Source: Escherichia coli | GTDB taxonomy: Bacteria > Pseudomonadota > Gammaproteobacteria > Enterobacterales > Enterobacteriaceae | Assembly (NCBI RefSeq): GCF_046105845.1 | Contig: NZ_CP151004.1 | Reading direction: 5' to 3' (one strand) | DNA length: 64,000 bases | In this document: piece after piece, positions 36,859 through 47,371 of the stretch | How the letters are laid out: each line of letters starts with the position of its first letter | How positions within the stretch are numbered: the first letter of the stretch is position 1 | Position numbers and translations under genes: made by a program | Notes under the pieces: model-generated | Seen by the model: only the letters and a program-made list of their open reading frames with translations | What the model was told of the DNA's origin: nothing | Database searches by the model: none

Positions 36859-36974
36859 GCTCCGTTTAACATTCATTGAGAAAACTGATGCTACTGTGTC
36901 AACGATCCGTTATCAGTGCAGGAAAATGCCTGTTAGCGTAAAAGCAAAACACAAATCTATCCATGCAAGCATTC

Positions 36975-37001
36975 ACCGCCGGTTTACTGGCGGTTTTTTT
37001 T
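36975..37001 (+). terminator. Intrinsic terminator downstream of dgcZ
   Basis: Stem ACCGCCGG / CTGGCGGT (loop TTTA) followed by TTTTTTT at 36995-37001. Confidence 0.7.
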
Positions 37002-37007
37002 CGCCGT

Positions 37008-37049
37008 CATAAAAATCAGGCCCCTTGTACACAACTGTAACAAGGGGCC
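37008..37049 (-). terminator. Intrinsic terminator downstream of mgtS
   Basis: Perfect 10-bp inverted repeat GGCCCCTTGT-(11 nt)-ACAAGGGGCC; on the minus strand it is followed by UGAUUUUUAUG. Confidence 0.65.
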
Positions 37050-37076
37050 GGTTAGGTGAGGGATTATCTCCGTTCA

Positions 37077-37172
37077 TTAGTCATCCCATTTGTGGCTGAA
37101 ATACGCGGCCAGAAAACCAGAAAATAAAATTATTCCCAGTACGGCCATAAAAACATTCATATTACCCAGCAT
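37077..37172 (-). CDS. mgtS: 31-aa small inner-membrane protein MgtS (YneM)
   Basis: Minus-strand ORF MLGNMNVFMAVLGIILFSGFLAAYFSHKWDD with GGAGG RBS 7 nt upstream; exact match to the MgtS sequence as I recall it. Below the ORF-track length cut-off. Confidence 0.85.
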   Translation of the reverse strand: MLGNMNVFMAVLGIILFSGFLAAYFSHKWDD

Positions 37173-39585: not shown

Positions 39586-39629
39586 ACGCACAGAATGTGA
39601 TGTCAGCACTCTGTGCGTCTGCTTTTATC
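39586..39629 (+). terminator. Intrinsic terminator after eamA
   Basis: 9-bp stem ACGCACAGA / TCTGTGCGT (15-nt loop) followed by CTGCTTTTATC; the stop codon of the downstream minus-strand regulator lies inside the U-tract. Confidence 0.6.
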
Positions 39630-40323
39630 GCGGGAAAAAGTACTTTACCTGGAACTCGAAAATATTGCTGTAAAGTAACGAATAATCCAGCGGAATAGAG
39701 TTACTATCCACAGCCTGGGTCTGAATTTTAAGTATGGGATCCCGTGGGCTGATCCGTAAAATACTGGCGATTTCTGGGGTAGGAAAAGTAGGGGAGAAAG
39801 TTTCAAAGGTGCCAATGATTTTGATCCCGCATTCGTTCTCAATATACGAAAATTTGGATTTTTGCATATGTGCTACGGTTAAATCAGGAAAACGTGCCAC
39901 TGACATCCACGTTTCTTCTAATTGTGCTGCATTATCCTCAATGAATCGCAGTCTCTTTATGTAATAAACCTGCTCACCAGTCACTAAATTCAGCTCAGTC
40001 GCAATAGGGGGAGAAGCATCCTGCACTTCAAATTTCATAATCTGACTTCCTGCCTCCTTGCCGCTTTTATGCGCAATTTCACTGAAGCTGTTCATGTGAT
40101 CAATGTGTGCAACAAAATTCTTTTTTTGAATGTATGTTCCTGAACCATGCTTTCTATGAATAACTCCTTCGCCTTCCAGCAAGGATAATGCCTTACGCAG
40201 GGTATTACGCGAAACATTATAACGAACAGCGAGTTCAGCTTCTGACGGCAACAAATCACCAACATGCCATGAATAGCCATTGATCTCGGATTTAAGTAAG
40301 CGGGCAATCTTTTGAAAAATCAC
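39625..40323 (-). CDS. bgcR: GntR/HutC-family transcriptional regulator (wHTH + UTRA effector domain), divergent from the PTS operon
   Basis: 232-aa ORF with GTG start; N-terminal GntR HTH (LPSEAELAVRYNVSRNTLRKALSLLEGEGVIHRKHGSGTYI) and HutC-type C-terminal domain. Symbol assigned by architecture match to the bgc locus, not sequence-verified. Confidence 0.8.
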   Translation of the reverse strand: MIFQKIARLLKSEINGYSWHVGDLLPSEAELAVRYNVSRNTLRKALSLLEGEGVIHRKHGSGTYIQKKNFVAHIDHMNSFSEIAHKSGKEAGSQIMKFEVQDASPPIATELNLVTGEQVYYIKRLRFIEDNAAQLEETWMSVARFPDLTVAHMQKSKFSYIENECGIKIIGTFETFSPTFPTPEIASILRISPRDPILKIQTQAVDSNSIPLDYSLLYSNIFEFQVKYFFPR

Positions 40324-40482
40324 TTTTGCACCTTTTAAGAGCCATTGAAAACAAGGGGTTGAGTCCTGATTGGTTTATCGTATGGCCGAGTCGTTTAATT
40401 ATTACCCTGATGTTGAACAACTTTATTGCTGTATTACTGTGATCAATGTACCAGGACGTATAGCTACTGCGGGATATGATAT

Positions 40483-40495
40483 TTACACAATGTAA
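40483..40495. promoter_or_regulatory. Candidate operator palindrome in the regulator/PTS divergent promoter region
   Basis: Perfect palindrome TTACA-caa-TGTAA 27 bp upstream of the EIIB start codon; a CRP-like half-site (TGTGA at 40438-40442) lies about 45 bp further upstream. Confidence 0.3.
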
Positions 40496-40521
40496 TCTGT
40501 TATATACCAGTAAGGGAAAAT

Positions 40522-40833
40522 ATGAAAAAGATATTGTTAGTTTGCGCTGCGGGCATGTCAACCAGTATGCTGGTTAAACGTATGATTGATCATGCTAACG
40601 CTATTTCACTTGAAGTTAATATTTCCGCATTGGCGATTGCAGAGGCTAAAGGGAAAATTAAAAATAACGAAGTTGACGTTGTTTTACTTGGCCCGCAAGT
40701 TCGCTTTCAGAAACCAGAGATTGAAGCTGTTGCACAGGGGAAAATGCCTGTAGCTGTTATCGAGATGAAAGACTATGGCACCATGAACGGACAGGCAGTT
40801 CTTGAATTTGCGATGAAACTACTGCAAGAGTAA
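40522..40833 (+). CDS. bgcE: PTS EIIB component, lactose/cellobiose family
   Basis: 103-aa ORF MKKILLVCAAGMSTSMLVKRM... with phosphorylatable Cys in LVCAAGMSTS; AAGGGA RBS. Symbol by architecture match to bgcEFIHA. Confidence 0.85.
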   Translation: MKKILLVCAAGMSTSMLVKRMIDHANAISLEVNISALAIAEAKGKIKNNEVDVVLLGPQVRFQKPEIEAVAQGKMPVAVIEMKDYGTMNGQAVLEFAMKLLQE

Positions 40834-40947
40834 GAATCTAATATTATTAAACTATTACCTGAACTAACTTTTCACACATCATAAAATGGATATGGCATAC
40901 ATGCTTTATTGGGATGTATAAATATCCAGAACAGCAGGTATAAAAAA

Positions 40948-41819
40948 ATGGGATTAATGGCCTCATTCGAACGTGGAATGGAACGTTTTCTTGTTCCAGT
41001 TGCTATCAAGTTAAACTCACAAAAACATGTTGCAGCGGTGAGAGATGGATTCGTTTTTACGTTTCCAATTATTATGGCAAGTTCATTAATTATATTAATT
41101 AATTTTGCCATATTATCGCCAGACGGTTTTATTGCCGGATTACTGCATCTGAATAGCATTTTCCCCAACCTTGAAAAAGCACAAGCTATTTTTACTCCGG
41201 TAATGAATGGTTCTGTAAATATCATGTCAATTATGATTGCTTTCCTGGTCGCCAGGAATATGGCGATTAGCTATGAGCAAGATGATCTTTTATGCGGATT
41301 AACGGCAATAGGAGCATTTTTTATTGTTGGGCCGCTCAACACGGCACTACCTGGGGCGCGCCATATCCGATTACCTGGACTTCTATTAATGATGCATTCG
41401 CCAACTGCGGCGGTTCAGGTATGACGTTGGGGTTATTGTTGGCTATTTTTATCGCTTCTAAGCGTGCGGAATACCGTGATCTGGCAAAAATGTCATTTAT
41501 CCCCGGTATTTTCAATATCAATGAACCGATAATGTTCGGCCTTCCTATTGTACTTAACCCCATCATGATGGTGCCGTTTATTCTGGTTCCCATTGTTAAC
41601 TGTGCCATTGGTTACTTCTTTGTTTCGATGGAAATTATTCCACCGGTTGCTTATGCCGTGCCCTGGACTACGCCCGGACCTTTAATTGCTTTCCTCGGAA
41701 CCGGGGGAAACTGGCTGGCGTTACTGGTGGGTTTTTTATGTTTAGGTGTGGCGACAATGATCTATTTACCTTTTGTTATTGCCGCCAACAAGGTCAATAA
41801 CATGACAACTAACGGATAA
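40948..41819 (+). pseudogene. bgcF: PTS EIIC component (lactose/cellobiose family) disrupted by an out-of-frame internal deletion
   Basis: ORF-track pieces 40909-41424 and 41292-41819 align to the N-terminal ~130 and C-terminal ~160 residues of ChbC-type EIIC in different frames. Total span ~290 codons versus ~440-450 for intact EIIC; frame switch near 41333-41337. Confidence 0.75.
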
Positions 41820-41846
41820 TCCCATTTACACAGGAAGGAGATGTTG

Positions 41847-42158
41847 ATGTTTGCAGATGAAGAACTTGTTATGGAGTTACTGGTCAACGCAGGACAGGCT
41901 CGTTCTGATGCGATGGAAGCCATACGTTGTGCCGGGCAAAAAGACTGGCAGGGCGCAACTCAGCTAATGGCCAGTTCTGAATGCGCCTGTCTTCAGGCGC
42001 ATAAGATTCAGACCGCGTTAATTAGTCAGGATGAAGGCTGTGGCAAAATAGAAGTTAATTTAATTCTGGTTCATGCACAGGATCATTTGATGAATGCAAT
42101 ATTATGCCAGGATTTAGCCAGGGAAATTATTTCATTAAGAAAAGAGCTCCATGCCTGA
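41847..42158 (+). CDS. bgcI: PTS EIIA component, lactose/cellobiose family
   Basis: ChbA-like sequence (...EELVMELLVNAGQARSDAMEAIR...LILVHAQDHLMNA...); start placed at ATG 41847 because GGAAGGAG abuts the track start at 41841. Confidence 0.85.
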   Translation: MFADEELVMELLVNAGQARSDAMEAIRCAGQKDWQGATQLMASSECACLQAHKIQTALISQDEGCGKIEVNLILVHAQDHLMNAILCQDLAREIISLRKELHA

Positions 42159-42161
42159 TTT

Positions 42162-42189
42162 TTTCCTCCAGTGCGATAGCTGGAGGAAA
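42162..42189 (+). other. Intergenic hairpin between the EIIA and porin genes
   Basis: 10-bp inverted repeat TTTCCTCCAG-tgcgatag-CTGGAGGAAA immediately after the EIIA stop and 25 nt before the porin start; no U-tract follows. Confidence 0.4.
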
Positions 42190-42210
42190 TTATTACACTC
42201 TTAAGGATAA

Positions 42211-45349
<3,139 letters not shown>

Positions 45350-45405: not shown

Positions 45406-45624
45406 CTACATAGCGTGTTGATTATAATAGGGCACGCCGAGCGCATCCGACTTATCACTGCCAGTACCCATGTGATTTAAATCAAACGGTGGTTGTTCCT
45501 GCGATGGGGGAACAACCACGACATTGGCACAGGAAGTAACAACCTGCTGCGTGGTTTGTTCCGCAATGCCCTGCGTGGAAAAGAGAATAAACGCAGCTGC
45601 TATTGCGGATAAAAGTGGTTTCAT
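45406..45624 (-). CDS. marB: Multiple antibiotic resistance protein MarB (periplasmic)
   Basis: 72-aa ORF with signal peptide MKPLLSAIAAAFILFSTQGIA; last gene of marRAB. Confidence 0.9.
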   Translation of the reverse strand: MKPLLSAIAAAFILFSTQGIAEQTTQQVVTSCANVVVVPPSQEQPPFDLNHMGTGSDKSDALGVPYYNQHAM

Positions 45625-45655: not shown

Positions 45656-46039
45656 CTAGCTGTTGTAATGATTTAATGGATGTAAAAAGCGCGATTCGCC
45701 CTGCATATTGGTCATCCGGTATTTATGTGGCGGAACATCAAAGTAATTTTTGAAGGTTCGGGTCAGAGTTTGTTGCGACTCGAAGCCATATCGTTCTGCC
45801 AGATAGAGTATCGGCTCGTTACTTTCCTTCAGCTTTTGCGCGATTTCCGTCATCTTACGGCTGCGGATGTATTGGCCTAATGAATGACCGGTTTCTTTTT
45901 TAAACATCCGTTGCAGGTGCCATTTAGAGTAACCCGAACGCTCTGACACTTTCTCCAGTGACAGTGGCGATTCCAGGTTGTCCTCGATCCAGTCCAAAAT
46001 GCTATGAATGGTAATAGCGTCAGTATTGCGTCTGGACAT
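45656..46039 (-). CDS. marA: AraC/XylS-family activator MarA
   Basis: [48 protein letters not shown]... matches MarA (127 aa); start at ATG 46037-46039 has better SD spacing than the track start at 46045. Confidence 0.95.
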
Positions 46040-46059
46040 CGTCATACCTCTTTTTTTGT

Positions 46060-46494
46060 TTACGGCAGGACTTTCTTAAGCAAATGCTCAAGTGTTGCCA
46101 CTTCGTCCGCCGTCAGGTTTTTTGTTAATTCTTGATGCAGGTCCTGGCCAACTAATTGATGGCATTGTTCACATATTGCCGCGCCGCTGGTGGTAAGTTT
46201 TACCAGTACGCCGCGCTTGTCATTCGGGTTCGGCAACCTTTCCACCCAGCCTTTACAGACCAGGCGATCCAGCATACGGGTCAGCGCTCCCAGGTCGACC
46301 GACAACACTTTTTTCAGTTCAACCGGAGTAATACACGCCGCGCAGCGGATAGAGCAGAGCACCTTAAACTGTGCCGCGGTAATATCCAGCGGAGACAGAT
46401 ACTCATTAAGCAGGCGATCTTTCTTCTGATTAACCATATGGATTAAGCGACCCAATGGAATAATTTCATTGAACAGATCGCTGGTACTTTTCAC
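46060..46494 (-). CDS. marR: MarR repressor of the mar operon (variant with Ser103 and His137)
   Basis: 144-aa ORF with GTG start ([46 protein letters not shown]...); codon 103 is AGC (46186-46188) and codon 137 is CAT (46084-46086). Confidence 0.95.
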
Positions 46495-46499
46495 ATTAG

Positions 46500-46511
46500 T
46501 TGCCCTGGCAA
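46500..46511. promoter_or_regulatory. MarR operator site II (marO)
   Basis: Palindrome TTGCCctGGCAA immediately upstream of the marR GTG. Confidence 0.7.
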
Positions 46512-46534
46512 GTAATTAGTTGCAGGGGATAATA

Positions 46535-46546
46535 TTGCCCAGGCAA
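46535..46546. promoter_or_regulatory. MarR operator site I (marO)
   Basis: Palindrome TTGCCcaGGCAA, 24 bp upstream of site II, in the position expected between the -35 and -10 elements of the marRAB promoter. Confidence 0.7.
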
Positions 46547-46570
46547 GTATAAGTCAAATGAATGAATTGA

Positions 46571-46593
46571 CCGATGCCACGTTTTGCTAAATC
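46571..46593 (-). promoter_or_regulatory. Marbox (MarA/SoxS/Rob activator site) of the marRAB promoter
   Basis: Reverse complement reads GATTTAGCAAAACGTGGCATCGG, matching the mar marbox as I recall it, upstream of MarR site I. Confidence 0.7.
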
Positions 46594-46705
46594 GGTTCAA
46601 GTTTTGGTCAGTGCGATGCAAGGTTAGCTAAAGAGTGACACTTTATCGTTGTTTACCCCTTATACTTTTCGCTGATAACCCAGATACACAGGATAACAAC
46701 CACCA

Positions 46706-47371
46706 ATGTTAGATTTATTTAAAGCAATTGGCTTGGGGTTGGTGGTGTTACTACCGTTAGCTAACCCATTAACAACTGTCGCGTTATTTCTTGGCCTGGC
46801 AGGCAACATGAACAGTGCCGAACGTAATCGTCAGTCGTTGATGGCCTCGGTGTACGTCTTTGCCATCATGATGGTGGCGTATTACGCCGGGCAACTGGTG
46901 ATGGATACATTTGGCATTTCGATTCCCGGTCTGCGAATTGCAGGCGGCTTAATCGTCGCGTTTATCGGTTTTCGGATGCTCTTTCCGCAACAGAAAGCAA
47001 TTGATTCACCGGAAGCGAAAAGCAAGTCGGAAGAGCTGGAAGATGAACCCAGTGCCAATATTGCCTTTGTACCACTGGCAATGCCAAGTACCGCCGGTCC
47101 GGGAACCATTGCAATGATTATTAGCTCGGCGTCCACAGTGCGTCAGAGTTCAACCTTCGCTGATTGGGTGCTGATGGTTGCGCCGCCGCTGATCTTTTTC
47201 CTGGTGGCGGTTATTTTGTGGGGAAGCCTACGCAGCTCTGGCGCAATTATGCGGCTGGTGGGCAAGGGAGGCATTGAAGCGATCTCCCGCCTGATGGGAT
47301 TCCTGCTGGTATGTATGGGTGTGCAGTTTATTATTAACGGCATTCTGGAAATCATTAAAACGTACCATTAA
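46706..47371 (+). CDS. marC: MarC-family inner membrane protein
   Basis: 221-aa polytopic membrane protein divergent from marRAB. Confidence 0.92.

Follow-up and report, generated by a model that had tools for sequence, protein, structure and literature searches.

An apparently intact marRAB locus in a non-K-12 Escherichia coli encodes the common Ser103/His137 form of MarR

The DNA analyzed here, referred to as the window, is a 64,000-nucleotide stretch of E. coli contig NZ_CP151004.1. The open reading frame listing and its translation place marR on the minus strand at 46060..46494, with a GTG start, a length of 144 amino acids, and a TAA stop codon at 46060-46062. The gene heads a marRAB operon that continues on the same strand with marA (45656..46039, 127 amino acids, protein identical to K-12 MarA) and marB (45406..45624, 72 amino acids), and it is divergent from marC (46706..47371, plus strand). 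Gene order is that of MG1655, and marC, marR, marA, and marB each match their own equivalog model. For MarR, the match to the NCBIfam equivalog NF008565 is full-length (residues 1-144 of 144) and scores 320.1 bits for a cut-off of 240. Differences from K-12 in the neighboring genes are modest: marC has 18 nucleotide changes, all synonymous, and MarB carries the substitutions S5L, L12F, A17T, V20I, P27Q, and H44Q. All of these except P27Q, which is absent from that set, are among the frequent clinical MarB variants (PMC8597741). In the spacer between marR and marA, an A-run at 46049-46055, just upstream of the marA Shine-Dalgarno sequence, has seven A where K-12 has six; the additional base is T in strain 2012C-4221.

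Within marR, seven nucleotides differ from K-12. Five of these changes are synonymous, and the two missense changes fall at 46188, in codon 103 (46186..46188, minus strand; AGC for Ser, GGC for Gly in K-12), and at 46086, in codon 137 (46084..46086, minus strand; CAT for His, TAT for Tyr in K-12). When the translated gene was aligned to MarR from the MG1655 record NC_000913.3, G103S and Y137H were the only amino-acid changes. The window protein and K-12 MarR (b1530, NP_416047.4; PDB 1JGS, 3VOD, 3VOE, 3VB2, 4JBA, 5H3R) therefore agree in 142 of 144 residues, and they share the GTG start, the length, and Cys80. The first-pass annotation had read Ser103 and His137 from this minus-strand reading frame and had given Gly103 and Tyr137 for K-12; the codons bear out the former and the alignment the latter, K-12 MarR not being itself a Ser/His protein. 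Over its whole length the window protein is identical to WP_000843419.1 of strain 2012C-4221, a RefSeq MULTISPECIES MarR found in most non-K-12 E. coli and Shigella and on at least 1,000 contigs, and the marR genes of the window and of strain 2012C-4221 are separated by three synonymous nucleotide differences.

Upstream of the GTG, a run of 112 bases (46495-46606) matches MG1655 at 100% identity and covers the complete set of marO elements, all read on the minus strand. Directly upstream of the start codon lies the core of MarR operator site II, TACTTGCCAGGGCAACTA (46497..46514). The marRAB promoter has its -35 hexamer at 46552-46557 and its -10 hexamer at 46529-46534; the core of site I, TACTTGCCTGGGCAATA (46533..46549), lies between them and overlaps the -10 hexamer. 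Further upstream is the marbox, GATTTAGCAAAACGTGGCAT (46574..46593), the binding site for MarA, SoxS, and Rob. Both operator sites are palindromes of the TTGCC...GGCAA type, and the window marO thus presents the two palindromic sites and the marbox that go with an NF008565 MarR. The assignment of sites I and II, the promoter, and the marbox follows established knowledge going back to Martin and Rosner in 1995. A general description of the marO elements is available (PMC3832178).

It had also been claimed that both operator palindromes and the marbox are intact. This holds, but four nucleotides further upstream do differ from K-12. When the entire region between marC and marR was aligned with K-12 and two close genomes, these marC-proximal SNPs were located at 46607, 46611, 46624, and 46648 (-85, -89, -102, and -126). 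All four lie upstream of the marbox. Every one of them recurs in strain 2012C-4221 or in AR_0067, so the window has no private SNP here. A published account puts a Fis site on the upstream side of the marbox (PMC7355843). Within the intergenic region the Fis consensus GNNYRNNWNNYRNNC fits at one place only, 46595..46609 on the minus strand (-73 to -87), where the window reads GACCAAAACTTGAAC and K-12 GAACAAAACTTGAAC. SNP 46607, common to strains 2012C-4221 and AR_0067, falls at a degenerate position of this consensus (GAAC... to GACC...), and the consensus still fits. A hidden change in the operator or promoter was considered and rejected, given that the four SNPs are shared, lie upstream of the marbox, and preserve the Fis consensus.

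The substitutions can be placed on the predicted fold of the protein. An AlphaFold2 (AF2) model of MarR (mean pLDDT 83.6) has the expected winged helix-turn-helix with a beta-hairpin wing, formed by helices 57-64 and 68-80 and by wing strands 84-88 and 96-100. In this model residue 103 sits in the first turn of helix 102-115, right after wing strand 96-100, and residue 137 lies within the C-terminal helix 129-142. The predicted position of residue 103 directly after the DNA-contacting wing would lend some plausibility to the view that G103S/Y137H is a partial loss-of-function lesion, leaving marRAB de-repressed and AcrAB-TolC efflux raised. The genuine Mar lesions on record affect the same gene and operator and comprise marR frameshifts and deletions, M74T, A70T, and a 20-bp duplication of site II. 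The window has none of them: the 144-amino-acid frame is intact, the helix-turn-helix and wing residues of the DNA-binding region are unchanged, and sites I and II are free of mutation, deletion, and duplication.

The two positions are also among the most variable in the family. A scan taking one genome per species yielded 80 enterobacterial MarR orthologues. Five residues (D, H, E, S, and G) occur at position 103 of these proteins and four (H, Y, L, and S) at position 137. Of the 144 MarR positions, 87 are invariant in an aligned subset of 46 sequences, and neither 103 nor 137 is among them. Such free variation among orthologues argues against a lesion. Ser103 and His137 were found in all four of the other Escherichia species sampled (E. 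albertii, E. whittamii, Escherichia sp. E1V33, and Escherichia sp. MOD1-EC7003), and the divergent representative labeled E. coli in the same scan carries them too.

How common the pair is within E. coli was estimated in 5,426 complete genomes of the species with 31-mers centered on each SNP, such that every 28-base seed word spans the SNP. The 31-mer for S103 occurs in 4,173 of these genomes and its K-12 counterpart, G103, in 1,189; the corresponding numbers at position 137 are 4,216 for H137 and 1,190 for Y137. Ser103/His137 is thus the majority state, at about 78% of complete genomes, O157:H7 among the carriers. Because the collection is skewed toward clinical clones and laboratory strains, the 78% is not a population frequency, although its direction is clear. 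In an evenly spaced sample, carriers of the K-12 alleles included the laboratory derivatives DH10B, C600, J53, MG1655, and RR1, and the others were natural isolates whose chromosomes are small, at about 4.5-5.0 Mb.

Because all four other Escherichia species sampled carry Ser103/His137, the pair is ancestral for Escherichia, and the Gly103/Tyr137 of K-12 is the derived minority state. This outgroup comparison reverses the polarity assumed when the pair was first annotated as a phylogenetic marker rather than a resistance lesion. The rejection of a lesion stands; the value as a marker is small, since the pair says of its carrier only that it does not belong to the K-12-like group. Ser103 and His137 are very probably ancestral residues at two poorly constrained positions, one in the first turn of the helix that follows the wing and the other in the C-terminal helix, with Gly103/Tyr137 originating later in one sub-lineage. 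If so, the pair has no resistance meaning. No conserved regulator can have a lesion as the form that is both ancestral and most common.

A few records in these searches call for separate mention. Gly103 was found among the 80 orthologues on only one contig, which has the K-12 sequence and is labeled as a Caldithrix metagenome-assembled genome. This contig (SMXE01000224.1, 'MAG: Caldithrix sp.') has a mar locus of the K-12 type, with about 98% identity to E. coli, and presumably entered the bin as E. coli contamination. Five mar-locus matches were on plasmid-labeled records, and a few genomes had as many as three copies; mis-assignment of replicons or duplication is the probable cause.

Effects of the pair on repressor activity are reportedly the subject of a primary paper by Oethinger in 1998. 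By secondary citation, G103S/Y137H is reported to have no effect on repressor activity (PMC11753663). The pair has been described as the commonest MarR substitution pair (PMC7082582), and it is common in clinical isolates and has been grouped with changes that are not known to increase efflux by themselves (PMC8597741). In one study it occurred in isolates with levofloxacin MICs from 0.016 to 16 μg/mL, its association with resistance was not significant, and no association with fluoroquinolone MIC was found (PMC4317672). The literature therefore agrees with the earlier description of the pair as a polymorphism of both susceptible and resistant isolates, and the window, in which both residues are present, falls under it. 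A loss of function is nevertheless implied by some genome-survey papers and by catalogues of resistance variants, and two reports point that way. An 8-fold up-regulation of acrA 'may be related' to G103S/Y137H according to PMC8976530, a speculation made without allelic-exchange evidence, and the pair is said to elevate marRAB expression in PMC11504656, again without allelic-exchange evidence. Against these stand the fully susceptible carriers with no statistical association with MIC, the reportedly unaffected repressor activity, and the occurrence of the pair in most complete E. coli genomes and throughout the other Escherichia species sampled. Allele frequency, the state in outgroups, the variability of the two positions, and published phenotypes led us to reject the resistance-lesion reading, which we regard as extremely improbable.

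The marRAB operon of the window is very probably an intact and functionally wild-type locus of a non-K-12 E. coli, in which Ser103/His137 is the ordinary ancestral allele. Conservation, prevalence, and the literature cited above suggest that this MarR represses normally. As a dimeric repressor of the winged-helix type, it would bind the TTGCC/GGCAA palindromes of sites I and II and silence marRAB until released by an inducer such as salicylate or by copper-mediated oxidation of Cys80. MarA would then activate its own promoter through the marbox, in addition to acrAB, tolC, and micF. By analogy with the nearly identical K-12 MarR, and with Cys80 kept and the literature on the allele in agreement, both repression and its release by salicylate or Cu(II) are to be expected in this strain.

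A different view would be that the Ser/His protein is functional but quantitatively unlike K-12 MarR, for instance in dimer stability or in sensitivity to inducer or copper, and that Gly103/Tyr137 arose as an adaptive retuning and not by drift. The near-perfect linkage of G103 and Y137 (1,189 versus 1,190 genomes) could be read in this way, but common descent by itself leads one to expect tight linkage over 102 bp. An exact-sequence look-up found Ser/His and Gly/Tyr on at least 1,000 contigs each, and the single-substitution alleles on hundreds, with 758 for Ser/Tyr and 515 for Gly/His. Because both single-substitution alleles, be they intermediates or recombinants, occur naturally, the two changes are not obligately coupled, and obligate coupling was rejected as an explanation. 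Gly103 is found in no other species among the 80 orthologues, and Tyr137 recurs in Salmonella and other genera, so that the position may matter for helix packing; both points favor retuning. However, the cited literature on the allele contains no phenotype of this kind, and we consider adaptive retuning highly unlikely.

There is a slim chance, somewhat apart from how Gly/Tyr arose, that the ancestral Ser/His protein differs measurably from K-12 MarR in operator affinity, dimer stability, or sensitivity to salicylate or copper. MarR biochemistry and the six structures all use the derived Gly/Tyr protein of K-12, a form carried by about one fifth of sequenced E. coli. Gly103 and Tyr137 are present in six of six distinct PDB MarR sequences, the window protein is 98.6% identical to the solved chains, and the Ser/His protein has no solved structure of its own. 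Were it to differ, K-12 would be a slightly atypical model for mar regulation, since most pathogenic lineages carry Ser/His.

Biologically, the window marRAB adds little: the Ser/His pair is a natural polymorphism, already known, and constitutes the normal MarR of most E. coli. The consequence is rather one for annotation, in that 'marR G103S, Y137H' is still listed as a resistance mutation in genome surveys. Being the ancestral majority allele, it carries no resistance information and excludes only a K-12-like lineage.

Across the mar locus the window is 97.0% identical to MG1655, and other Escherichia species representatives reach 84-95%; these identities place the window in E. coli in the strict sense. 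Over 3000-57999, the part compared with the 5,426 complete E. coli genomes, the best identity does not exceed 98.7% in one half (33000-57999) and 99.1% in the other (3000-27999), with different best-matching strains in each half. By this measure the window belongs to a lineage that complete RefSeq E. coli genomes do not represent. For the mar part, the closest complete genomes include ST405/phylogroup D strains, such as AR_0067. These combine G103S and Y137H with K62R (WP_000843422.1), a change that the window lacks, and the window is about 1.3% divergent from them at the DNA level. Divergence from AR_0067 is evenly spread and amounts to roughly 0.5-3% in each kb. The phylogroup markers of Clermont typing (arpA, chuA, yjaA, and TspE4.C2) occupy other chromosomal positions in K-12.

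Between eamA and marB, at 39625..45349, the window holds a bgc-type beta-glucoside island that encodes a GntR regulator, PTS IIB, IIC, and IIA components, a porin, and a 6-phospho-beta-glucosidase, in the gene order annotated in strains 2012C-4221 and AR_0067. The same island adjoins marB in the ST405/phylogroup D genomes. It is absent from K-12, where eamA directly follows marB. The bgc operon itself (bgcR, bgcE, bgcF, bgcI, bgcH, bgcA) has been described previously (PMC3585215). Ser/His MarR and the bgc-like locus had been taken together as signs of a non-K-12 lineage. The 97.0% identity and the presence of the island support that conclusion, but the island is broken and the Ser/His pair alone adds little.

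Not all genes of the island are intact, the IIC and porin genes being frame-disrupted. The PTS EIIC gene (40948-41819) has a 451-bp out-of-frame internal deletion relative to AR_0067 and 2012C-4221, with its junction at 41328/41329, which removes approximately codons 128-277 of 440. A 47-mer spanning this junction matched none of the 5,426 complete E. coli genomes. In the porin gene (42214-43885), a 2-nt deletion near 43750 (GCATTTTAGG to GTA--TTAGG) shifts the frame, and the reading frame ends at 43806 after 530 amino acids instead of 557; this is a candidate deletion that could also be a sequencing error. The two deletions suggest that the bgc locus may be decaying in this strain. An Rfam scan gave no match in the mar region; its sole gathering-threshold match in the window was STnc560, an Hfq-binding sRNA, at 36870-37083 on the plus strand (281.9 bits), in the mgtS/mgrR-dgcZ region.
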